From Bacilli bacterium (GTDB lineage: Bacteria; Bacillota_I; Bacilli_A; RF39; UBA660), in contig JBJEEB010000021.1 of NCBI GenBank assembly GCA_051872655.1, positions 2,535 through 66,534 on the forward strand: a stretch of 64,000 bases of DNA, given 5' to 3'. Below are positions 841 through 58,603 of the stretch, piece after piece. Made by a program: the position numbers and the translations under genes. How positions within the stretch are numbered: the first letter of the stretch is position 1; each line of letters opens with the position of its first letter. The notes below the pieces were generated by a model, which ran no database searches, was not told the DNA's origin, and saw only the letters and a program-made list of their open reading frames with translations.

Positions 841-968
841 AAGAAAAAACTCTTTGAAAGAGTTTATAGCTAGCATTATTCTCTTTCATCGTTATTAGCT
901 GTACCACCTTACATTATGCAGGTTGGTATGAGTTCACAGAGCTAATTCTCTCCCTCATTCTTGATAAA
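841..968 (-). promoter_or_regulatory. SAM-I (S-box) riboswitch leader of metK, including terminator hairpin
   Basis: The minus-strand RNA UUAUCAAGAAUGAGGGAGAGAAUUAGCUCUGUGAACUCAUACCAACCUGC..AAGGUGGUACAGCUAAUAACGAUGAAAGAGAAUAA fits the S-box core (UUAUCAAGA / GAGGGA / CAACC / AAGGUG / AGAGA). It is followed by the terminator AAACUCUUUCAAAGAGUUUUUUCUUUUU (841-868), just upstream of the metK RBS. metK is the classic S-box-controlled gene. Confidence 0.72.
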
Positions 969-1029
969 ATATATCTATATTATATATCATTATTTTTGTT
1001 TATTCAAGTAGTTTGAATATTATTTTTTT
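964..1029. repeat. Direct repeat copy 1 (promoter/hairpin module), split by a 19-nt insertion
   Basis: ATAAAATATATCTATAT (964-980) plus TTATTCAAGTAGTTTGAATATTATTTTTTT (1000-1029). This matches 1887-1933 at 46 of 47 nt apart from the insertion at 981-999. Confidence 0.85.
979..1007 (-). promoter_or_regulatory. Sigma-A-type promoter for the metK leader
   Basis: The minus strand reads TTGAAT (1002-1007), 17 nt, TATAAT (979-984), about 10 nt upstream of the riboswitch P1 region. Confidence 0.55.
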
Positions 1030-1886: not shown

Positions 1887-1933
1887 ATAAAATATATCTA
1901 TATTTATTCAAGTAATTTGAATATTATTTTTTT
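1887..1933. repeat. Direct repeat copy 2 (promoter/hairpin module)
   Basis: ATAAAATATATCTATATTTATTCAAGTAATTTGAATATTATTTTTTT. It contains the inverted repeat TATTCAA-N5-TTGAATA, whose arm supplies the -35 TTGAAT on the minus strand. Confidence 0.85.
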
Positions 1934-1981
1934 AAAGACTTTAGGCTTTAAAAAGCCTCTTAAGACTACAGGCTTAAGAGG
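1929..1981. repeat. Tandem-hairpin intergenic repeat, locus 1 (2 hairpins)
   Basis: tttttaaag-ACTTTAGG-ctttaaaaa and cctcttaag-ACTACAGG-cttaagagg, lying 10 nt after the stop of the 1992..2375 gene. Confidence 0.8.
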
Positions 1982-2478: not shown

Positions 2479-4242
2479 ATGTTAGGGAAGATTATTGCTA
2501 TTAATGAGAATATTGTTTCTGTTAAGTTAGAAGTTAATGTATATGACTATGATGGCTTAATAGGTAAAAATGTTACTTTTAAAGATGAAAATATTACTAG
2601 TATAGGTGAAGTTACTGCGATTGGTAATGGTATTATGCAGGCTATTTTAGTAGGAGAAATTAGAGATAATAAGTTTTTATATGGGGATATTTCTAAACCT
2701 TCATTTAAGGCTATATGTTATTTAATTGATAATGCTACTTTAAATATTGTTCTAAATAGCGATGCATCTAATACTATTAAACTTGGTAAATCTTATATTT
2801 ATCCTGACTATGATATTAAACTTGATGTAGGTAATTTCTTTTCAAATCATTTTGCTATACTTGGTAATTCTGGTAGTGGTAAATCTTATTCGGTTGCTAA
2901 AATATTACAAAGTGTCTTTTATCAATGTAAAAGTCTTCCTTTTTATTCAAATATATTCTTATTTGATGCTTATGGTGAATATCAAAGGGCTTTTTCTAGA
3001 ATACACGAAGTTAATGAAAATATTAATTATAAAGTATATACTACTGATTTAAATAGTACAGAGTTTGAAATTCTTACTTATCCTTTTTGGCTTCTAGGGG
3101 TAGATGATTTGTGTCTTCTTATGGGAGTTACTTCAAAAGAACAAATTCCAATAGTTGAAAAGGCTCTTAAGTTAGTTAGTTACTTTTCAAGAAAAGAAGA
3201 TGAAGTTATTAATCAAAAGAATGATATTATAGCTAGATGTTTACTTGATGTTTTATTTTCTGGTAAGGCTCCAAGTATGATTAGAAATAAGGTTGTATCT
3301 ATTCTTACTAAATTTAATACTGCAAATCTTAATTTGGAAGTTAAACTTGAAAAAGGTGGTTGGTCTAGAACTATTAGACAGTGTTTATTTGTTGAACAAG
3401 GCGGAGAATTTGCTGATGTTGAACTAGTTATTGAGTATTTAGAAAGTTTATGCTTAGATAACTTTGAACTATCACTTCCTAATGGAGAATACATGTATTC
3501 TATGAAAGACTTCTCTATTGCTTTAGAATTTGCTTTAATATCTGAAGGTGCATTAAATAGTGATACTACTTTTGAACTAGCTAATGCTCTTAAAGTTAGA
3601 TTTAATAATCTTATGAATAGTGATTATTCTAGATATTTTGATTATAATGGTTATGTTAATAGAGAAGGGTATATTAATTTACTTCTTACTTGTAATAATA
3701 GTAGAAAAGCTCAAATTGTTAACTTTAATATTAATTATGTAGATGATAGATTTGCTAAGAATCTTGTTAAAATATATTCAAAGTTATTATTTGACTATAT
3801 TGTTTCTTTAAATCAAAGAGCTTCAATGCCATTTCATATTGTACTTGAAGAAGCACATAGATATGTTCAAAATGATAGTGATGTAGAAATTTTAGGATAT
3901 AATATATTTGAGAGAATTACTAAAGAAGGTAGAAAATATGGATTACTTCTTGGTATTGTATCACAAAGACCATCAGAACTATCTGAAACTACGATATCTC
4001 AGTGTAGTAACTTTTTAGTATTTAAAATGTTTCATCCTAAGGATCTGCAATTTATTAAGGATATTATTTCTAGTGCTGATGTTACGGTTACAAACAAAAT
4101 TAAAACTTTACATCCTGGTACTTGTATTATGTTTGGTACAGCCTTTAAACTTCCTACAATTGCAATACTAGATAAACCTAATCCAGAGCCTCTTAGTCAA
4201 AGCTGTGATATTAATAAAACTTGGTATATTCATAATAATTAA
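2479..4242 (+). CDS. HerA-like (DUF87) FtsK/HerA-clade P-loop ATPase
   Basis: ORF track, 587 aa. It has an N-terminal barrel-like segment (GKIIAINENIVSVKL..IGEVTAI), a Walker A GNSGSGKS at residues 129-136, and a DUF87-type Walker B/sensor string FHIVLEEAHRYV ... GIVSQRPSEL. RBS GGAGAAAAAG sits upstream. Confidence 0.75.
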   Translation: MLGKIIAINENIVSVKLEVNVYDYDGLIGKNVTFKDENITSIGEVTAIGNGIMQAILVGEIRDNKFLYGDISKPSFKAICYLIDNATLNIVLNSDASNTIKLGKSYIYPDYDIKLDVGNFFSNHFAILGNSGSGKSYSVAKILQSVFYQCKSLPFYSNIFLFDAYGEYQRAFSRIHEVNENINYKVYTTDLNSTEFEILTYPFWLLGVDDLCLLMGVTSKEQIPIVEKALKLVSYFSRKEDEVINQKNDIIARCLLDVLFSGKAPSMIRNKVVSILTKFNTANLNLEVKLEKGGWSRTIRQCLFVEQGGEFADVELVIEYLESLCLDNFELSLPNGEYMYSMKDFSIALEFALISEGALNSDTTFELANALKVRFNNLMNSDYSRYFDYNGYVNREGYINLLLTCNNSRKAQIVNFNINYVDDRFAKNLVKIYSKLLFDYIVSLNQRASMPFHIVLEEAHRYVQNDSDVEILGYNIFERITKEGRKYGLLLGIVSQRPSELSETTISQCSNFLVFKMFHPKDLQFIKDIISSADVTVTNKIKTLHPGTCIMFGTAFKLPTIAILDKPNPEPLSQSCDINKTWYIHNN

Positions 4243-4292: not shown

Positions 4293-4346
4293 CTTCTTAA
4301 GCCTATAGTCTTAAGAAGTAAATTAGAGCCTTATAGTCTCTAATTT
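4293..4346. repeat. Tandem-hairpin intergenic repeat, locus 2 (2 hairpins, opposite orientation)
   Basis: cttcttaag-CCTATAGT-cttaagaag and aaattagag-CCTTATAGT-ctctaattt. The plus strand carries the CCT..AGT form, downstream of the plus-strand herA-like gene. Confidence 0.8.
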
Positions 4347-4389
4347 AATACTTTTTTATTTTAATCTTATTTAAGTTTAATTAAAAATT

Positions 4390-5673
4390 TTACTTTTGGA
4401 CTATAAAAGTTGTTATAAAACCTACTAGTGAGGCTGATAAAGTTATAGGAATACTATATTTTAAGTATTCTTTTAATTTTACTTCATAGCCATTCTTTTT
4501 TAATATTCCTAGGGCTGCTATATTTGCTGATGCTCCTATTGGGGTAAAGTTACCTCCTAGTGTTGAAGCTATTATTAAGGCGTAATAAAGAAGATATGGA
4601 TTAATGTTAGTAGTAGTTGCTAAAGTAGATATAACTGGCAACATAGTGGCTACATAAGGAATATTATCAATAAAGGCTGACACAATTATTGATATTGTAA
4701 ATATCATAACATATATTAGCACCTGATTATTTCCACCAATATTTATTATGGTATTGCTAATTTTATTTATTATTCCCGTTTCTTTGATTCCACCAATAAT
4801 TATGAATAAACTAGCTAGTAGAATTATGGTGTGATAATCTATTTCTTTTATATATTTTAATGATGATTTTATATTTTTATCTTTTATAACTTTAATTATT
4901 AATCCAATTATAAAATATGAAATACATATTAATCCATTTGTTAATTCGTGTTTGTTTGGTATGAAAGATGCAGTTATTAAAGTTATGATTGTTCCTACCA
5001 GAATAATGGTTGGATAGTAACTGTTTACTTTAGTTTTTTCTGTTTTTTCTATTTTTTTATTATTTTTTCTAAATATGAATAGTAGTGTTAATGCCGATGA
5101 TATCATTCCAAATTGAGTAATAAAAAATAAACCCATTTTACCATTATGGACAAAGAAATCTAAAAAAGTCATTTTTGTTTGTCCCGCTAGAAGGATGGAT
5201 GTTGTATCTCCAACTAAAGTGGCTGCTCCTTCAATATTTGAAAATATTGCTACACATATAACGATTGGTATTGGAGAGATCTTCATTTTTTTAGCTACTA
5301 ACATAGTTATTGGAGCTACCATTAATACTGTTGCAACATTATCTACGAAGGCAGATATTATTCCCGCAAAAACTGAGAGTGCCACTATCATCCATTTGGC
5401 ATTTGGTACCTTATTTATTATGATATCTGAAAGTAGTGCTGGCATTTTTGATTCAATAAATAATGATACTGTTCCCATAGTACCAATTATCATTAATAAG
5501 ATATTGAAATCTATTTCTTTTAATACTTTATCTATGGGTAATATTCCAATTATAATAAAAATTAATGCAGTTCCTAGTGCTATATATGATTTATATTTTG
5601 GAATGGTTAGCATTAATATATATGTTATAACAAATAGAATTACCGCTAGTAATTGTGTATTTATAATTATCAC
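4390..5673 (-). CDS. ArsB/NhaD/CitMHS-superfamily polytopic permease
   Basis: ORF track, 427 aa, about 11-12 hydrophobic helices. The C-terminal motif GGNFTPIGASANI is typical of this permease superfamily. Confidence 0.55.
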   Translation of the reverse strand: MIIINTQLLAVILFVITYILMLTIPKYKSYIALGTALIFIIIGILPIDKVLKEIDFNILLMIIGTMGTVSLFIESKMPALLSDIIINKVPNAKWMIVALSVFAGIISAFVDNVATVLMVAPITMLVAKKMKISPIPIVICVAIFSNIEGAATLVGDTTSILLAGQTKMTFLDFFVHNGKMGLFFITQFGMISSALTLLFIFRKNNKKIEKTEKTKVNSYYPTIILVGTIITLITASFIPNKHELTNGLICISYFIIGLIIKVIKDKNIKSSLKYIKEIDYHTIILLASLFIIIGGIKETGIINKISNTIINIGGNNQVLIYVMIFTISIIVSAFIDNIPYVATMLPVISTLATTTNINPYLLYYALIIASTLGGNFTPIGASANIAALGILKKNGYEVKLKEYLKYSIPITLSASLVGFITTFIVQK

Positions 5674-5726
5674 CTCAATTAATTTTATTCTAAAATACTT
5701 TAAATAATTATAGCTTTAAAAATTAA

Positions 5727-7675: not shown

Positions 7676-7780
7676 AATCTATATCCTCCTTAAATCTATT
7701 TCAATATATCATACATGTATTTTAATGTCAATATATTTTCGTACATTTGTTTGCTTTTTTTATAAATGAAACAAGTCTTA

Positions 7781-7863
7781 TTTTAAAGACAATTTTGGCT
7801 TTAAAATTATTTTTTGAAGACTACAGGCTTCAAAAAACCTCATTAAACTTTAGGTTAATGAGG
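7781..7863. repeat. Tandem-hairpin intergenic repeat, locus 3 (3 hairpins)
   Basis: ttttaaag-ACAATTTTGG-ctttaaaa, ttttttgaag-ACTACAGG-cttcaaaaaa and cctcattaa-ACTTTAGG-ttaatgagg, lying 14 nt after the uvrA stop. Confidence 0.8.
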
Positions 7864-15263: not shown

Positions 15264-15316
15264 AACACTAGAGACCTAGGCTCTAGTGTTCCACTTAAGA
15301 CCTTAGGCTTAAGTGG
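15264..15316. repeat. Tandem-hairpin intergenic repeat, locus 4 (2 hairpins, in a divergent promoter region)
   Basis: aacactagag-ACCTAGG-ctctagtgtt and ccacttaag-ACCTTAGG-cttaagtgg. Confidence 0.8.
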
Positions 15317-22844: not shown

Positions 22845-22910
22845 TTATATTCCTCCTACTTAAATATAAGTATATATTATTTATTCTATTATTGCAATTA
22901 GTATATTTAA

Positions 22911-22963
22911 TTTTTGAGACTTAGGCTCAAAAATATTTTCTAGAGATTTTAAGCTCTAGAAAA
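22911..22963. repeat. Tandem-hairpin intergenic repeat, locus 5 (2 hairpins)
   Basis: tttttgag-ACTTAGG-ctcaaaaa and ttttctagag-ATTTTAAG-ctctagaaaa, the second having a degenerate apex. A locally G+C-rich 28-mer follows at 22964-22991. Confidence 0.7.
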
Positions 22964-23002
22964 CGACGAGCAACAAAGTGTGAGGCGAAACTAAAAGAAA
23001 GT

Positions 23003-23569
23003 CTAAGTAAACTTTCTTTCTTTATATTCTTCTAATGTTAGATTATTATTATATATATAATTAGCAATGCTACCTACATATCTAATATGCCATGGTTCAT
23101 AATTATACTTTGTTATATCTTCTTTACCTTCTGGATATCTTAATATAAAACCATATCTATAACAGTTTTGATGAACCCATTTTGTTTCCACTAATTCTTC
23201 TATTTCATGTTCAATATGACATTTTTCATTTCTATATACACAGAAATCTATTGCTAAAGATGTTTGATGTTCTGATTTTCCTGGCTCTGCTATTCTTGTT
23301 ATCGCATAAGTAAAGCCTTTCTCTTCAAGTAAGTTATTATATATTTTCTCTTGATAATCATAATCTCTATATCCACTTTCTATATCAATATGATATCCAT
23401 ATTTTAGAGCATCTTTTTTCATTCTATCAAAAGCTAACTTTACTTCCTTATCTATTAATATTCCATCTTTATATTTGCTTTCTGCATCTACTAAATTATT
23501 AGGTATATGTGCTCTCGGTATGGGATTATCTTTATTTACTAAAATACTATAATCCATAAGTACCTCCAC
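23003..23569 (-). CDS. VanY-type D-alanyl-D-alanine carboxypeptidase (M15B)
   Basis: ORF track, 188 aa. Motifs are SGYRDYDYQ, SEHQTSLAIDF and EPWHIRYVG. Confidence 0.75.
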   Translation of the reverse strand: MEVLMDYSILVNKDNPIPRAHIPNNLVDAESKYKDGILIDKEVKLAFDRMKKDALKYGYHIDIESGYRDYDYQEKIYNNLLEEKGFTYAITRIAEPGKSEHQTSLAIDFCVYRNEKCHIEHEIEELVETKWVHQNCYRYGFILRYPEGKEDITKYNYEPWHIRYVGSIANYIYNNNLTLEEYKERKFT

Positions 23570-23601: not shown

Positions 23602-23925
23602 CTATTTTAATTTATCTATTTTTTTATTTAAATTTTTTATTTCATTATTTAATTCATTTATTCTAGTTTCTAATTCTTTTTTTTGATTGGTTAAGTTATT
23701 ATTATTTAGTTTAACAATATCATAATTTTCTTTTAAATTATTTAATTTATCTATTTCTTCTCTAAGTTCTTTATATTCATTTAAGTATCCTTGTAATTCT
23801 TTATTTTTATTATTTAGAGTTATATTATTATATAAAGTTATTATTAATATTATAAATGCTCCTAGAAAAGAGATAATAGATATTACTTTTAATATTTTAT
23901 TTGTTTTTTTCTTATTTTTTTTCAT
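23602..23925 (-). CDS. Membrane-anchored coiled-coil protein
   Basis: ORF track, 107 aa, with an N-terminal TM helix followed by heptad-like Asn/Lys/Glu/Leu repeats. Its start overlaps the upstream stop by 1 nt (TAATG). Confidence 0.5.
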   Translation of the reverse strand: MKKNKKKTNKILKVISIISFLGAFIILIITLYNNITLNNKNKELQGYLNEYKELREEIDKLNNLKENYDIVKLNNNNLTNQKKELETRINELNNEIKNLNKKIDKLK

Positions 23926-24893
23926 TAGTAATACAAAGCCTTCTTTCCAAAATAATTATATCTTTCTCTAAATACTGATAGTGATTGATATTTTACTTTA
24001 CCTCCAATTGGGTCAGATATTATTACTTTATCAGGAGTGTATCCTATTACTACAACTGCGTGTTCTCCAGCTTTCCAGTATACCCTCTCTCCAGTTGGTT
24101 CATATATCCACGATCTAGATATATATGGTACTGATAAATTCATTGAAGTCCATACCATTACTGGTCTACCTGACTTAACTATTTTTAGAATATCATCAAA
24201 AGATGTTCCTGTGGCAATCTTTATTCCTGGTTTATATATATTTGCTACTTTTGCAATTGGTTTTTCATATACTCCAAATGAATTTTGACTTCTTGGGTCT
24301 CCAATAAACTCTAATTCTGGATTGCCTCCATAAATAACATCATCTTTAGTATAAGGTGTACTTCCTTTATCTAATTTATTTATGATATCATCAGTAGATA
24401 CTGATACTCCATAATATTTAAGTAGTATGGTTAATGCTACTGATTCACATCCTGTTGGATAATCGGGATATTGATTAATTGTGGGAACACCTGATATATA
24501 AGTTGAATTCTTTTCTTCGTATTCTTTGGCTAATCTTTTATATTCGCTTTCAAGAGTGGTTATATTATTTTCAAGGCCTACTATTTCTTCTTCAAGAGAT
24601 GATATATCTTCTTTTAATGTCTTACCAGTTTCTTCTTCATCTAATATCATTTGTTTAATATCATCTACTTTGAAAGCAGTTTCTGAAAATAATTCTTGAA
24701 CTTTTTCATTAGTTTCTTCTTTCTCTTTGTATATACTATCTAAAGATACTTTATTATCCACAATTAAATTATTTTGTCTTAATTCTTCCTCTATTTTATT
24801 ATTTGATAGTATTAATGTTTTATTATCAGTATGTAATATTACTATCTCTATAATTATTAAAATTGAGAAGAAAACTATTAGTATTTTTTTCAT
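23925..24893 (-). CDS. Peptidase_C39-like (YvpB/BtrH-like) cysteine peptidase domain protein with N-terminal anchor and coiled coil
   Basis: ORF track, 322 aa. It contains YPTGCESVALTILLKYYG (catalytic Cys context) ... EHAVVVIGY ... DP. Confidence 0.6.
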   Translation of the reverse strand: MKKILIVFFSILIIIEIVILHTDNKTLILSNNKIEEELRQNNLIVDNKVSLDSIYKEKEETNEKVQELFSETAFKVDDIKQMILDEEETGKTLKEDISSLEEEIVGLENNITTLESEYKRLAKEYEEKNSTYISGVPTINQYPDYPTGCESVALTILLKYYGVSVSTDDIINKLDKGSTPYTKDDVIYGGNPELEFIGDPRSQNSFGVYEKPIAKVANIYKPGIKIATGTSFDDILKIVKSGRPVMVWTSMNLSVPYISRSWIYEPTGERVYWKAGEHAVVVIGYTPDKVIISDPIGGKVKYQSLSVFRERYNYFGKKALYY

Positions 24894-24905
24894 AATAACT
24901 CCTTT

Positions 24906-27002
24906 TTATAATTTATTTATACTTGGATGCCCTTTCATTAATTTTCTAATACCTGTTGGATGAGGAAATGCTACTGTTAAGATTGATTTATCTACACTTA
25001 TTATTACTCCTTCACCAAAATCGGTATGCATAATATGTTCTCCTACTGAATATTCAATATTTTTATCAATTTTTTTCTTTATATTGATACCTATTTTATT
25101 AAGTAGTTTATTTCCATCTATTTCAATATATTCTTTATCTATTTCATTTATAAATCTACTTGGAAGATTTCTACTAGTATTTCCAAATAACATACGTGTA
25201 TCTGCTGATGTTATATATAGTTTTTTCTTAGCTCTTGTAATGGCTACATAGCATAGTCTTCTTTCTTCTTCAATAGCAGAATTACTTCCATCATTGATTG
25301 CATTATAATGTGGAAATATTCCTTCTTCCATACCAATTATGAATACATAGTCAAACTCAAGTCCTTTTACTGAGTGAACAGTCATTAAACTTACTCTACT
25401 GGAACTATCTTGATGTTCTGTTATGTCGCTGACTAAAGATATTTCTTCAAGAAATTCTTCAAGATTTGCTGTACCATACTCTTCTTCATAATTCTTAGTA
25501 ACACCTTTGAATTCATTTAAGTTTTCTAATCTTATTTCATCTTCAAGTAGTTTTGAATTAGTAAGTTCTTTCTTGATACCACTCTTTTCTAGAATTGTAT
25601 CTACTAACTCAGTAAGTGAAAGAGACTGACTATCTTGTGTTAATTCTTCAATTAAATTTTTAAATGCTAATTCTTTACCTGAGGTTATTGCTTCATAGAT
25701 GGAAGTATTAGATGATTCGGCAGTATTAATTAAATTTTCAATGGTTTTTTCACCAATTCCTCTTTTAGGTGTATTTATTATTCTGAGTAAACTTACATCG
25801 TCTTTATGATTACTTATTAGTCTTAAATAACATAATAAATCTTTTATTTCTTTTCTATTATAGAAGTAGAAACTACCTACCACTCGATACTTGATGTTTT
25901 TCTTTAACATTTCTTCTTCTATTGTTCTTGACTGTGCATTGGTTCGATATAAGACTGCTATATCTTCTTCTTTTACTCCTTTTGATAGTAATGTTTTAAT
26001 TTCTTCTACTACAAAAGATGCTTCTTCTTTTTCGTTAGATACTTTTTTATATTTTATTTTATCTCCTTCTTCATTATTACTCCAAAGGTTTTTATCTTTT
26101 CTTTCATGGTTATTTTTTATAACACTATTAGCGGCATTTAATATATTTTTAGTAGAACGATAATTTTCTTCAAGTAAAATTGTTTCACATTCTGGATAAT
26201 CTTTCTCAAAATTTAAAATATTTTTATAATTTGCTCCTCGGAAAGCATATATTGCTTGATCATTATCTCCTACTACAAATATATTCCGATACTTTGAAGA
26301 TAATAATCTACTGAAAGTGTATTGGGCTTCATTGGTATCTTGATATTCATCTATTAAAATATATTTGTATCTTTCTTGATAATCATTTAAAATATTGGGA
26401 TAATTTTTAAATAGTTTTATTGGTAATATTAATAAATCATCAAAGTCAACAGAATTTCCTTGTTTTAATTTTTTTTGATATATTTTATATACTTCTACTA
26501 TTTTATGATCAAACTCTATTTTAGAAAATTTATCTATATCCATCATTTCATTTTTAGCAGAACTTATCTTATTTCTTATTTCTCTTGGATTATAATTTTC
26601 TTTATTCATATTTAGATCTTTCATTATTTTTTTTATAATAGTAAGAGCATCATCACTATCTATTATAGTGAAGTTTCTTTCATATCCTAAGAGAGCATAA
26701 TTTTCTTTTAATATTTTGACTCCTAAAGAATGAAATGTTGATATTTGAATATTATTGGCAGAGTCTCCTATTAAATTTACTACTCTATCTTTCATTTCTT
26801 TAGCAGCTTTATTTGTAAATGTTATAGCTAAAATATTATATGGACTTACTCCATTTTCTATTAAATTTGCTATTCTATTAGTAAGAACTTTTGTTTTTCC
26901 TGAACCTGCTCCTGCAAGTACTAACATAGGTCCTTTTATATGGTTAACAGCTTTCTGCTGATTAGGATTTAATTCTAATGTCTTCATCATGCTTAACCTC
27001 AT
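24906..27002 (-). CDS. pcrA: ATP-dependent DNA helicase PcrA (UvrD family)
   Basis: ORF track, 698 aa. Motifs are AGAGSGKTKVLTNR, TFTNKAA, DEYQDTN, VGDNDQAIYAFRGA, YRT, and VHSVKGLEF..VAITRAK. Confidence 0.92.
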   Translation of the reverse strand: MRLSMMKTLELNPNQQKAVNHIKGPMLVLAGAGSGKTKVLTNRIANLIENGVSPYNILAITFTNKAAKEMKDRVVNLIGDSANNIQISTFHSLGVKILKENYALLGYERNFTIIDSDDALTIIKKIMKDLNMNKENYNPREIRNKISSAKNEMMDIDKFSKIEFDHKIVEVYKIYQKKLKQGNSVDFDDLLILPIKLFKNYPNILNDYQERYKYILIDEYQDTNEAQYTFSRLLSSKYRNIFVVGDNDQAIYAFRGANYKNILNFEKDYPECETILLEENYRSTKNILNAANSVIKNNHERKDKNLWSNNEEGDKIKYKKVSNEKEEASFVVEEIKTLLSKGVKEEDIAVLYRTNAQSRTIEEEMLKKNIKYRVVGSFYFYNRKEIKDLLCYLRLISNHKDDVSLLRIINTPKRGIGEKTIENLINTAESSNTSIYEAITSGKELAFKNLIEELTQDSQSLSLTELVDTILEKSGIKKELTNSKLLEDEIRLENLNEFKGVTKNYEEEYGTANLEEFLEEISLVSDITEHQDSSSRVSLMTVHSVKGLEFDYVFIIGMEEGIFPHYNAINDGSNSAIEEERRLCYVAITRAKKKLYITSADTRMLFGNTSRNLPSRFINEIDKEYIEIDGNKLLNKIGINIKKKIDKNIEYSVGEHIMHTDFGEGVIISVDKSILTVAFPHPTGIRKLMKGHPSINKL

Positions 27003-32155: not shown

Positions 32156-32244
32156 TTATTATCACCTTTCTTTTGTCTATTTAATTATATCAAATACCTA
32201 GAGTAAATTACAATAGTTTTTTTTATTTATGCTAATAAATATTT

Positions 32245-32946
32245 TTATTTTAATTTTAACATTCTTTTGATGTTATCTTCTTTTATTTTTTCATCACTAA
32301 TTGTTGATAGTCTACTATAAAAACTTCCTAATTGAATATAATATTTACAAGTATATGGATCTCCTAGTGTAATATCTATATAGTTTGGATTTGATTCTTG
32401 ATTATTATATATATCTCTTGATACTATTATAATTGCACTATTATCATCTACTTTTATACTTATATTATTTTTACCTTCATTATAATCTGAATTGTTAATT
32501 TTATTAGTTGGTAATGATTGTAATAAAATTTTTATTGCTTCATAAAGCTTTGGATTATTATTTCTATATATAGTTAATTCTATATTCTTGAATTCTTTAT
32601 TTGATGGATTATTATTATCTTTTTCATAAGCACGTATTTTGAAATAAGGAAAACCTATATTATTTGTTTCGTACATTTTTATGAATATTACTGGTTCTTC
32701 ATTATACTCCATAATTATGAAATATCCTGGTCCTAAATATTTTTCATCGTATAGAACATATACTTTACTTAGACTTTCAATATAAGTATGTTCTTTACAA
32801 TAATAATTATTATTATGTGTCATTCCAATAGAGCAATCTCCCGCTAGGGGTATATTCAAATCTGTATCTTCGTATTCTTGTTCTTTCTTCATTTCGTCTT
32901 CTTGTTCTGGCTTTATACACCATTCACAATTTCCACAATATCTCAT
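32245..32946 (-). CDS. Hypothetical protein with N-terminal Cys cluster
   Basis: ORF track, 233 aa. The N-terminus has CGNCEWC ... C ... C..H. No family recognised. Confidence 0.5.
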   Translation of the reverse strand: MRYCGNCEWCIKPEQEDEMKKEQEYEDTDLNIPLAGDCSIGMTHNNNYYCKEHTYIESLSKVYVLYDEKYLGPGYFIIMEYNEEPVIFIKMYETNNIGFPYFKIRAYEKDNNNPSNKEFKNIELTIYRNNNPKLYEAIKILLQSLPTNKINNSDYNEGKNNISIKVDDNSAIIIVSRDIYNNQESNPNYIDITLGDPYTCKYYIQLGSFYSRLSTISDEKIKEDNIKRMLKLK

Positions 32947-33016
32947 TATTACTTCTCCTTCGTGATATATACTAGCATAAATTTATTTTTTATGCAATAA
33001 GAAGAAATATGATATT

Positions 33017-33070
33017 TTTGATAGAGACTCTAGGCTCTATCAAACCTCTTAAGACCTTAGACTTAAGAGG
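33017..33070. repeat. Tandem-hairpin intergenic repeat, locus 6 (2 hairpins)
   Basis: tttgatagag-ACTCTAGG-ctctatcaaa and cctcttaag-ACCTTAGA-cttaagagg, lying 16 nt after the htrA stop. The stems are identical to locus 7. Confidence 0.85.
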
Positions 33071-33086
33071 ATAAGAAAAGAAGTAA

Positions 33087-34193
33087 CTATTTACTTTCTT
33101 CGAGTGTTACTTCTGTTTTTAATTCTTTACCATTTCTATTATATGTAATTGTTATTTTATCTCCAGGAGAATGTTTATATAGTTCATATCTTAGTTTTGC
33201 TACTGATGAAATTTCATCTTTTTCTATCTTAGTAATAATGTCACCTTTTTGTATTCCAGCTTTATCTGCTGGTGAACCTGATACTACTTCAATTACTGCT
33301 ACTCCAGATTTTACTCCATCAGGTACTGTTATTTTAGCCTGCCATAGATAATAACTGTTTGTTAAGTCTAACATACTAATACCTATATATGGTCTTTTTA
33401 CACTTTCTCCTTTTTCTATTGTTTCAGCATAATATAGTGCATCTTCAATTGGTATGGCAAAGCCCATTCCTTCAACACTATAACTAGATGTTCCACTTGT
33501 TTCTTGAGTTAATTTTAAAGAATTAACTCCTATTACCTCACCATTAACATTACATAGTGGTCCACCACTATTACCAGGATTTAATGCTGTATCTGTTTGT
33601 AAAACCTTCATATAGTAATCAGATGTTGTTCCACTTAAGCTAACTTCTACTAGTCTATCTTTTCCAGATAATATACCTTTAGTTACTGTGCCACTATAAG
33701 TATCTCCTAGTGGGGCACCTACTGCAAAGACTGTGTCTCCTAATTTCATACTTTCTGTGTTTCCTAATGTTGCTACTTGCTTTATACTACTTGTTGATAC
33801 TGTTAATACTGCTATATCTGCATATGTATCTCCTCCTAGTATTTTAGTATCTGCTGATGTACCATCACTAAATATTACTTTAGCACTATCACCGCTTGAT
33901 ACAACATGATTGTTAGTCATAATATATGATGTTGAGTCATCTGCTTTATAAACAAATCCTGTTCCTGTTGATACTGCTGTTTCGCCTTTATAACTTGCTA
34001 CTACTACAGTGGCATCATATACTTTATCAACTGCTGCTGATATGCTATTTTCATTTATAGTATAACTTCCTCCACTACTTGATGTTAATATAGTTCCATG
34101 ATCTAACTGTTTTATTACAAGATATGACCATAATGCTCCTCCTATGAAAGCAACAAATACTAGTAATGGTATTAATATTTTATTTTTTTTCAT
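33087..34193 (-). CDS. htrA: HtrA/DegP-family serine protease with PDZ domain
   Basis: ORF track, 368 aa. It has an N-terminal TM helix, the catalytic strings TNNHVV, DIAVL and GNSGGPL, and a C-terminal PDZ domain (GSPADKAGIQKGDII). Confidence 0.87.
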   Translation of the reverse strand: MKKNKILIPLLVFVAFIGGALWSYLVIKQLDHGTILTSSSGGSYTINENSISAAVDKVYDATVVVASYKGETAVSTGTGFVYKADDSTSYIMTNNHVVSSGDSAKVIFSDGTSADTKILGGDTYADIAVLTVSTSSIKQVATLGNTESMKLGDTVFAVGAPLGDTYSGTVTKGILSGKDRLVEVSLSGTTSDYYMKVLQTDTALNPGNSGGPLCNVNGEVIGVNSLKLTQETSGTSSYSVEGMGFAIPIEDALYYAETIEKGESVKRPYIGISMLDLTNSYYLWQAKITVPDGVKSGVAVIEVVSGSPADKAGIQKGDIITKIEKDEISSVAKLRYELYKHSPGDKITITYNRNGKELKTEVTLEESK

Positions 34194-48394: not shown

Positions 48395-48455
48395 TATTTT
48401 CTCTCCTTCCGCCATGACAAAAAGTCATAGTAATAAAATTACATGGTATATTATA

Positions 48456-57822: not shown

Positions 57823-57880
57823 TTTGATAGAGACCCAAGGCTCTATCAAACCTCTTAAGACTATACTTAGGCTTAAGAGG
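57823..57880. repeat. Tandem-hairpin intergenic repeat, locus 7 (2 hairpins)
   Basis: tttgatagag-ACCCAAGG-ctctatcaaa and cctcttaag-ACTATACTTAGG-cttaagagg, lying 21 nt after the rsmG stop. Confidence 0.85.
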
Positions 57881-57901: not shown

Positions 57902-58603
57902 TTATATATCTCTCTTTATTATTTCAGAATATCTTCTTGGATATTTAGAATCTGTTTCTTTTAGTTTTTGATACTTAATAATTGTTCTAATACTATCTTC
58001 TTTAGGTAAATTAAATACTTCTCTAGTAACTTCTTTTATGTTTAATTTATTATAGTAATTAGTTATATTTACTTCTTCATTTTCAACATTTGCTTTCATA
58101 GTTATAAAGTATCCACCTATTTTTAATAATGGTATACCATACTCTAATAAATGTTTTAAAGGAGCTACTGCTCTTGCTGTCACTATATCAAATACTTCTC
58201 TATTATTTTTAGAAAATTCCTCTGCTCTAGCATTTAGTATAGTTACATTTGTTAAATTTAATTTATCTTTGACAATATTTAGAAAATTACATTTTTTACC
58301 ATTAGATTCTATTAATGTTAACTTAGTGTTTGGAAAACATATTGCTAGTACTAATCCAGGAAATCCTGCTCCTGAGCCTATATCACATATGATCTGATTA
58401 TTTATATCTATTACTTTAGTAATTGTTAAACTATCATAAAAATGTTTTAAGTAAACTGCATCTTCTTCAATTATTCTAGTTAAGTTATATTTATTGTTTT
58501 CTTCTTTTAATATATGATAATATGTATCTAATTTATTTAGCATTTCTTCTGTTATAGCTATTCCTAACTCTTTTGTTTTAATTAAAAATTCTTCTTTAAA
58601 CAT
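57902..58603 (-). CDS. rsmG: 16S rRNA (guanine527-N7)-methyltransferase
   Basis: ORF track, 233 aa, with SAM motif DIGSGAGFPGL. It follows mnmG with an 8-nt overlap. Confidence 0.9.
   Translation of the reverse strand: MFKEEFLIKTKELGIAITEEMLNKLDTYYHILKEENNKYNLTRIIEEDAVYLKHFYDSLTITKVIDINNQIICDIGSGAGFPGLVLAICFPNTKLTLIESNGKKCNFLNIVKDKLNLTNVTILNARAEEFSKNNREVFDIVTARAVAPLKHLLEYGIPLLKIGGYFITMKANVENEEVNITNYYNKLNIKEVTREVFNLPKEDSIRTIIKYQKLKETDSKYPRRYSEIIKRDI

Follow-up and report, generated by a model that had tools for sequence, protein, structure and literature searches.

Pairs of short hairpins, standing in tandem between genes and alike in little more than a mismatched tip, make up a previously undescribed, lineage-specific structured repeat in an uncultured gut lineage of Bacilli (RF39-type, CAG:302 group). 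The stretch in which they were recognized (the window, 64,000 nucleotides long, positions 2535-66534 of contig C21) belongs to a source assembly, G000, of 1.36 Mb in 67 contigs; window and assembly alike have a GC content of 25%. The anatomy of the element, the selection on the fold of one strand and on its purine.purine (R.R) mismatch, the narrow host range, the position at operon boundaries and the absence of a RAYT are solid. We tentatively read the family as a lineage-specific, REP/BIME-like structured intergenic repeat at operon boundaries, a reading that is quite possible while stopping short of probable.

A module measures about 54-64 nt and consists of hairpin A followed by hairpin B, often with a third hairpin behind them. 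The individual hairpins are 26-28 nt long and their stems are free in sequence. Hairpin A has eight variable base pairs, then an A-T pair, a G-C pair, an A.G mismatch, a C-G pair and a loop of 3-12 nt, the longer loops prolonging the stem. Hairpin B follows the same layout with seven variable pairs; about 79% of modules have C-G at its foot, and 94% have A-T as the pair adjoining its tip. A and B share polarity and are thus arranged in tandem direct order, with a spacing of 0 nt in 132 of 157 modules and of 0-1 nt overall. The third hairpin, present in many modules, is as long as A and B and carries tandem G.A/A.G pairs in its stem (e.g. agtGAGAGACtacaGGCTCGAact). A profile of the 157 modules reveals a weak AAAAtnTT flank 5' of A, with T in 80% and G in 0% at position -1, and an A-rich run lies 3' of B. 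In RNA folding both strands fold well (z -2.6 to -5.8), with values of -5.8 at locus 3 and -4.9 at locus 6.

Tandem-hairpin modules of the window, with the extent of each hairpin.
Locus	Positions	Strand	Hairpin A	Hairpin B	Third hairpin	Remark
Locus 1	1929..1981	+	1929-1954 (tttttaaAGACtttaGGCTttaaaaa)	1956-1981 (cctcttaAGACtacaGGCTtaagagg)		
Locus 2	4293..4347	-	4319-4347	4293-4318		inverted copy
Locus 3	7780..7863	+	7780-7807	7810-7837 (ttttttgaAGAC..GGCTtcaaaaaa)	7838-7863	
Locus 4	15264..15316	+	15264-15290	15291-15316		
Locus 5	22910..22987	+	22910-22934	22937-22962	22964-22987	third hairpin C-type
Locus 6	33017..33070	+	33017-33044	33045-33070		tip of B AGAC/GACT (A.A mismatch)
Locus 7	57823..57880	+	57823-57850	57851-57880		loop of B 8 nt

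An earlier, sequence-only reading of the window had described a family of fifteen hairpins at seven loci. Every locus indeed carries hairpins as described and all fifteen are present; locus 5 adds a sixteenth, the C-type hairpin, which has tandem G.A/A.G pairs and one G.U pair. The same reading held the apex to be conserved in 13 of the 15 hairpins. The exact AGAC/GGCT tip is found in 12. Two of the variants, AAAC/GGTT in the third hairpin of locus 3 and AGAT/AGCT in hairpin B of locus 5, are compensatory and keep the mismatch, and the AGAC/GACT tip at locus 6 replaces it with A.A.

The pattern AGACN{3,4}GGCT occurs ten times in the window, nine of them in the loci of the table, against 0.78 +/- 0.89 occurrences in 100 dinucleotide shuffles, none of which reaches ten. 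Enrichment extends to the whole assembly, a point on which the earlier reading had staked its case: G000 contains 74 hairpins with a perfect outer stem (54 AGAC..GGCT and 20 in reverse complement), and ten order-1 Markov genomes simulated as a control contain 0.2 on average. These 74 hairpins form 47 loci, of which 46 lie outside called ORFs. In an unbiased scan of hairpins with one free position, AGAC..GGCT is the commonest hairpin top in G000. Perfectly pairing tips are almost absent from the assembly, with a single AGCC..GGCT and five AGAC..GTCT.

The stems covary, as had been claimed. In 25 modules chosen by tip spacing alone, with no requirement for pairing, 97.7% of the cells pair compared with 69.9% in shuffles, and 15 of the 21 stem pairs vary on both sides. 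The conserved unpaired position, also claimed earlier, proves to be a purine.purine one throughout. Among in-array hairpins that lack the exact AGAC/GGCT tip, the variants are AGAC/GACT (A.A, 19 cases), AGAT/AGCT (12), AAAC/GGTT (8), AGGC/GACT (G.A, 3) and G.G (1), and the perfectly paired AGAC/GTCT occurs once. Since the mismatch stays R.R while the pairs that flank it covary (AGAT/AGCT, AAAC/GGTT), and since the paired tip is met only once, the unpaired position is selected and not merely inherited.

The irregularities in the arms are informative as to which strand folds. Among 50 hairpins whose arms contain a single irregular position, read on the AGAC..GGCT strand, there are 25 R.R, 17 G.T and 8 A.C oppositions and no pyrimidine.pyrimidine (Y.Y) one. 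Taking all hairpins, R.R outnumbers Y.Y on this strand by 55 to 6 (binomial p = 5e-11). Three recent single changes between sister species gave G.T, G.T and A.G on the same strand, and the tandem G.A of the third hairpin would read as tandem C.U/U.C on the opposite one. The preponderance of R.R and G.T among the irregularities (42 of 50) and the lack of Y.Y, together with the tandem G.A, point to the AGAC..GGCT strand; judging from these substitution patterns, it appears to be the one whose fold is under selection. It is also thermodynamically the more stable in 102 of 119 modules, a figure that largely restates the energy parameters of A.G versus C.U. In most loci the AGAC..GGCT strand is antisense to the upstream gene.

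A covariance model built from the 25 tip-spacing modules finds 49 matches in G000 and between 1 and 125 matches in each of the 24 species of the genus (Clostridium sp. CAG:302 group) that were sampled, all 24 being positive. Across 150 other genera of the family, matches appear in one only (G167, with 11), where the A-B-C layout and the tandem G.A are as in the genus, with a compensated neighbouring pair. A strict pattern search of 185,579 species, each represented by one genome, is confined to the CAG:302-type group (Clostridium sp. CAG:302, Firmicutes CAG:321, the 'uncultured Tenericutes' UMGS1185/610/1661/1739, and Hadza, Nepal and rabbit Bacilli MAGs), apart from a few hits attributable to chance. 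Viral contigs yield no pattern match and phage and plasmid records no blastn match. A search of the seven loci against the Rfam covariance models is negative at the gathering threshold and at E <= 5, and literature searches returned no description of this tandem-hairpin family.

The element is not mobilized by a RAYT. The earlier reading saw no REP-associated transposase in the window, and none is encoded anywhere in the G000 assembly: PF01797 (Y1/RAYT) is absent from G000, G016, G023, G015, G024 and G006, six genomes with 46 to 125 matches each. Conversely, it is present in the low-copy G010 and G017 (6-7 matches). Over 30 genomes of the genus PF01797 is uncorrelated with copy number, and a RAYT/IS200 partner was accordingly rejected.

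Modules typically begin 5-45 nt past a stop codon, or else follow the upstream gene's own terminator, immediately after its U-tract, and the next promoter lies beyond them. In the window, locus 1 lies 10 nt past the stop of a minus-strand gene (1992-2375), locus 7 lies 21 nt past that of rsmG (57902-58603), and locus 5 is placed after the stop of a VanY-like gene (23003-23569). Locus 2 lies 50 nt past the stop of a plus-strand HerA-like gene (2479-4242), immediately behind a classical terminator, and locus 6 is directly behind the terminator-like hairpin of an HtrA-like gene (33077-33116). Locus 4 separates two divergent genes, for a HAD hydrolase and a sigma factor, and hence stands at no gene's 3' end. 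A shared function of the neighbouring genes was considered and rejected, as these encode UvrA, RsmG, HtrA-like, VanY-like, HerA-like and zinc-ribbon proteins.

Such positions invite the proposal that the module is a specialized terminator or 3'-end stabilizer whose CCUCUUAAGCC..GUCUUAAGAGG form ends the transcript of the upstream operon. It would stop RNA polymerase, block 3' exonucleases, or both, and a termination or decay factor would read the tip. We consider this unlikely, though it deserves to be taken seriously. The earlier reading had advanced an orientation rule, with the element following a stop codon and the transcript of the upstream gene carrying the CCU.. form; six of the seven window loci conform, but the rule does not generalize, holding for only about half of the loci genome-wide. 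In G000, relative to the AGAC orientation, both neighbours are antisense in 18 loci (with 4 more at contig ends), both are sense in 16, and 5 loci are divergent and 4 convergent. In other species antisense prevails over sense by 76 to 22, in favour of a terminator, among loci fetched by a pattern that itself favours the CCTCTTA-type hairpin B; there the B side lies a median of 22 nt from the upstream stop codon. Read on the gene's strand, two window copies score as terminator-like, the U-rich arm of the next hairpin serving as U-tract. One of these is hairpin B of locus 1, read on the minus strand (CCTCTTAAG..GAGG + CTTTTT). Moreover, downstream of htrA and rsmG, module-free species have a plain terminator at the stop, and some species have a terminator and then a module.

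Against a terminator, at least five T within the 8 nt after the hairpin are found in just 14 of 61 modules in the co-directional ('--') context, and the U content is independent of the direction of transcription. A U-tract hidden in the arm of the next hairpin and tuned to transcription was rejected on the same ground, T counts being equal between contexts. In 24 of 78 antisense-context loci, loci 2 and 6 among them, no more than about 12 nt separate the B side from the end of a classical hairpin with U-tract, which would leave the module mostly past the transcript end. The 16 oppositely oriented copies of G000 and the 5 between divergent genes do not fit either, the selected strand is antisense in the majority context, and termination gives no reason to exclude a paired tip. 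The earlier assertion that these are not plain rho-independent terminators finds support in the irregular U-tracts, in the roughly one third of copies that stand behind a separate classical terminator and in those between divergent genes, although a minority of copies do show a hairpin followed directly by a U-tract.

The reading as a REP/BIME-like repeat at operon boundaries, which we tentatively prefer, would work as follows. The folded strand would be single-stranded or extruded DNA, or else RNA of the AGAC..GGCT sense. A putative host protein would bind the fold and read the G-C / R.R / C-G motif, its distance to the foot of the hairpin being constant. The bound module might then delimit transcription units in the way proposed for BIMEs, whether through insulation, through back-up termination or by managing supercoils, and it may also mark the entry point of new gene cassettes. 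Searches for a RAYT, an integron integrase and tyrosine recombinases yielded no partner protein.

The orientation of modules along the chromosome tracks neither replication nor transcription cleanly and fits no model considered. A replication-linked orientation, with single-stranded DNA on the lagging-strand template, was rejected, there being no flip at the origin on C21 or CP091726. On C21, GC skew and gene strand put the origin near 67-70 kb, and 14 of 15 loci point in the same direction on both sides of it; on CP091726, the complete chromosome of G014, with an origin at about 95 kb and a terminus at about 840 kb, orientation is likewise unflipped at the origin. Two further candidates were also discarded. 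For a 5' leader of the downstream gene, the promoter of sense copies (e.g. ttttttagTATAAT) is downstream of the element, which places the latter outside the 5' UTR. For a DNA uptake sequence, the fixed bases number merely 4+4, the loop is variable and the motif is intergenic only.

The idea of an entry point comes from comparisons of gene content. Between the window and G001, a relative with genes about 83% identical to those of G000, five of six large differences have a junction at most about 40 nt from a module, on its A side (loci 1, 2, 5, 6 and 7). A 1.36-kb gene found in G000 but not in G001 starts 16 nt beyond the A side of locus 2, G001 homology stops 26 nt beyond the A side of locus 7, and G001 lacks both the locus 6 module and the gene at 32245-32946. 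The comparison was extended to CAG:302 (G016) against four sisters, with three more cases. G023 has a 4.7-kb insert of four genes placed exactly between two inverted modules, which in G016 are separated by 45 nt. A 1.55-kb insert is flanked by direct repeats of 48 nt beginning at the A side of a module, and a 1.1-kb insert begins about 55 nt from a hairpin. In all, of ten large indels that separate close relatives, nine have one junction at a module. A rough estimate puts the probability of such a link arising by chance at about 1e-4 if all spacers are eligible and at about 0.06 if only long spacers are. The link of indel junctions to modules is suggestive only, because both features favour operon ends.

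Taken at face value, these junctions would suit a structure-specific recombination or landing site. By analogy with attC, a putative recombinase would use the folded template ('bottom') strand, polarized by the obligatory purine.purine mismatch, and cassettes would enter and leave beside conserved operons. We regard this as improbable. It is consistent with the strand that folds, which in most loci serves as template for the upstream gene, with irregularities that are conserved while stems vary, with the constant use of the A side, and with the inverted modules and direct repeats at the two inserts just described. However, a search of 30 genomes of the genus for an integron integrase (TIGR02249) gave no hit above the cut-off of 265 bits. 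The six tyrosine recombinases of G000 are generic, with orthologs also in one-copy genomes. Modules are dispersed and form no cassette arrays, and they stay with the conserved upstream gene instead of being carried by the cassettes. The conserved part is the tip, whereas attC is cut at the foot. One cassette of the window (jag-mnmE) has no module nearby.

The module evolves slowly in its stems. Between G000 and G001 stems are about 100% conserved, and about a fifth of loop positions differ. At loci 1, 2, 3 and 7, which G001 retains, the stems are unchanged save for one C>T change at locus 7, which gives a G.T pair on the + strand, and for hairpin A of locus 1, which has decayed in G001 via a 3-nt deletion. 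Locus 2 differs in its loops only; locus 3, set between genes that are 83% identical, has two differences, both within one loop. Constant stems with changed loops, next to genes at 83%, indicate a purifying selection stronger than that on coding DNA. Stems are at the same time highly diverse. In 148 modules there are 87 distinct A arms and 45 distinct B arms, both arms being identical in 1.4% of module pairs within genomes versus 0.7% between genomes, and orthologous sites in different clades carry modules with unrelated stems. None of the models tested accounts for slow stem change and high stem diversity occurring together in a family that is young and narrow.

The module is gained and lost as a unit. 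In G001 the spacer orthologous to that of locus 4 has no module. G011 lacks two of the four modules that its sister species retain, through indels of about 64-90 nt; one of these, a clean indel of about 64 nt, leaves the empty site ..AATAT^TTATATAG.., at which a target duplication is not evident. Downstream of htrA and rsmG the module is present in some species and absent from others, orthologous sites of locus 6 having been compared across 29 species. A look-up by exact protein for strain-level empty sites returned a single place, which was uninformative, and missed three times. Loci 6 and 7 of G011-type genomes have the module and about 80 nt of promoter/leader in common and are more alike than are their orthologs in G000, which points to conversion or re-seeding.

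Gain and loss of this kind would also be expected of a selfish miniature mobile element with no host function, mobilized in trans by a putative enzyme, a proposal to which we give only a slender chance. In its favour are the range of copy numbers within one genus, from 1 to 125 per species, the unit indels between sister species and the two similar G011-type loci. Its narrow range resembles that of pneumococcal BOX, RUP and SPRITE (PMC3049150), which have been argued to be selfish elements. Conversely, nearly all copies in a genome differ in both arms, which speaks against a recent burst, the stems are held between species above the level of coding DNA, the one clean empty site has no target-site duplication, and no transposase tracks copy number. 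Finally, an independent small RNA, transcribed along the AGAC..GGCT strand from its own or a divergent promoter, beginning with hairpins A-B(-C) and often ending at a neighbouring bidirectional terminator, is very unlikely: tandem G.A, G.U and R.R-only irregularities do keep to that strand regardless of the flanking genes, an A-rich tract and a reversed terminator hairpin follow B in about one third of copies, and the terminator beside locus 6 has a U-run in the AGAC-strand direction too, but 268 upstream flanks of A hold no positioned -35 or -10, for which reason a promoter of its own was rejected, the promoters that are visible lie just beyond the element and point away from it, and Rfam offers no match.

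The fold and one purine.purine mismatch are nearly all that is conserved in this family, which makes it a clean natural case for asking how mismatched hairpins are read in vivo, and whether in the form of DNA or of RNA. If the link with indels is true, modules would help to explain how very small genomes exchange accessory genes while the neighbouring operons remain undisturbed. The covariance model, for its part, can annotate operon boundaries in these MAGs and flag repeats that break assemblies.

Among known systems, rho-independent terminators and the hairpin clusters of operon ends likewise lie just past stop codons and form stable hairpins (PMC1187862, PMC8355165). Tandem hairpins differ in having no regular U-tract, in often standing behind a complete terminator and in occurring also between divergent genes. 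Their conserved mismatch and tip sequence are not needed for termination.

The attC sites of integrons are recognized as a folded single strand; their structure is conserved while the sequence is free, and unpaired bases set the polarity. The bottom strand of attC serves as template for the upstream gene. Each site is one long hairpin, conserved and cut at its foot, and the sites form arrays next to intI. Tandem hairpins resemble attC in lying 3' of genes, in the folding of the template strand and in the variable gene content that adjoins them. Unlike attC, they comprise two or three short hairpins, are conserved at the tip, and are dispersed beside housekeeping genes with no IntI. If the recombination reading were true, they would constitute a dispersed counterpart of attC in genome-reduced gut Bacilli.

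BOX elements (boxA-boxB-boxC) are built from modules of 45-59 nt each. Like tandem hairpins they are modular, structured and intergenic, of low-GC Firmicute type, and restricted to one species group (PMC3049150). The likeness extends to the lack of a known transposase, a slow turnover and a likely effect on co-transcribed genes (PMC3049150). BOX is conserved in sequence, whereas tandem hairpins have units of 26-28 nt, free stems and a conserved mismatch; it is the architecture alone that is compared here.

The closest parallel in our reading is with the REP, BIME and REPIN sequences of Enterobacteria and Pseudomonas, which are extragenic, short, imperfect palindromes that are clustered and polarized, occur in either orientation at the ends of operons and are specific to lineages (PMC3337134). 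In REPs of Pseudomonas fluorescens the palindrome stays imperfect because of an AA or TT at its centre, and some REP elements have been co-opted as terminators (PMC3337134). The differences concern structure as well as mobility. REP-type doublets are inverted (alternating), whereas tandem-hairpin modules are in direct order, 0-1 nt apart, and lack the GTAG-type 5' foot of REP, as the 0% of G at position -1 indicates. REP copies are near-identical within a genome; the stems of tandem hairpins differ almost everywhere and only the tip is constant. Copy numbers reach hundreds for REP and range from tens to about 125 matches for tandem hairpins. REP is associated with RAYT, in contrast to G000 and five high-copy relatives (about 100-125 matches each), which have none. 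Work on REP-type repeats has centred on Proteobacteria, in which RAYT accounts for them; tandem hairpins represent a structurally different, RAYT-free solution in an uncultured gut lineage.

Contig C21, which carries the window, and the complete chromosome CP091726 (G014) were examined over their whole length. In both, the modules, each built of two or three abutting hairpins, favour one absolute DNA strand, to the left of the replication origin as well as to its right. On C21, 14 of 15 have this orientation, and in the origin-proximal parts of CP091726 the two orientations are split about 40 versus 7. Near the terminus the orientation is mixed, and module density is approximately 2-3 times greater near the origin.

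Other repeats adjoin some modules. A non-coding stretch of ~150-230 nt (containing ..ttagttatatacagtttttaatacct..ttgccattattt..) recurs in the genome under study and is the break point of several of its contigs. It has a tgtaagaa/ctcctta module on one side and the start of differing genes on the other; downstream of the C59 copy lie the gene of a 103-aa protein, STAS-like by eye, and a gene that looks like one for a sigma factor. This repeat may be a common leader or promoter cassette. Modules that follow htrA and rsmG have, in their A-side flank, a promoter-plus-leader of ~80 nt (TTGAAA..17..; ..aatgctgattttgaggggag..ATG). In a comparison of G011, G015, Clostridium sp. CAG:302 (G016), G023 and the sister species G001, the same element was found before unrelated genes at two loci (L176-L179, L216-L220) in several species, as if a promoter cassette had been propagated. 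Finally, ~45 nt of conserved sequence (..tatggcttatatattatagatatggctgatatat) stand before those hairpins whose arm is ttattttt or tcatttat, a hint that they are part of a bigger repeat unit. This block also adjoins a CAG:302 hairpin beside a 1.1-kb indel.

Repeats, RNA-family matches and the recombinase locus (G000, the genome under study; C, contig)
Feature	Location	Strand	Remarks
Non-coding repeat, ~150-230 nt	G000 C20:1-120, C30:9053-9206, C65:21455-21687, C8:56240-56391, C59:22779-22926
Hairpins with arm ttattttt or tcatttat	G000 C16:23559, C66:15713, C25:32935, C22:16572, C30:1673
Module and Xer-like tyrosine recombinase	G000 C59:7736-8680		Orthologous loci in G015, G006, G009, G191
C. 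difficile sRNA n00280 model (Rfam)	Window 25198-25300	-	Sub-threshold, 52.6 vs 65.2 bits
L31-Firmicutes leader (Rfam)	Window 48403-48430	-	Sub-threshold, 32.0 vs 33.3 bits
SAM riboswitch (RF00162)	Window 883-970	-	57.6 bits, E 1e-10

Three segments of the window are absent from the sister species. The syntenic region of G001 lacks a 1.36-kb segment (4362-5720) with an unannotated gene at 4390-5673 (427 aa); similar T-rich stretches, atacttttttattttaat and atcatttttttcttgttttatt, occupy the ends of the segment, and module 2 lies 16 nt from its left end. Also missing are 32223-33087, comprising module 6 and the gene 32245-32946, whose 233-aa product has no Pfam match, and 23628-24903, corresponding to two genes at 23602-24893. 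Among CAG:302 relatives, G023 has an insert of 4.7 kb (C6:45012-49698; L258, L264), enclosed by two inverted modules and holding four or more plus-strand genes; in CAG:302 itself a gap of just 45 nt separates this pair of modules. A CAG:302 segment of 1.55 kb (on C21 of that genome) lies between 48-nt direct repeats (L255 positions 2783-2830 and 4335-4385), the left of which begins directly behind a module. It is wholly absent in G015 and mostly absent in G023.

A module is located 15-170 nt upstream of an Xer-like tyrosine recombinase gene, the same gene in several species; being one conserved locus, this was counted as a single observation.

Comparison of the window with known RNA families gave two sub-threshold matches, the one to n00280 positioned within a helicase gene, and a SAM riboswitch upstream of the truncated gene 1-876.
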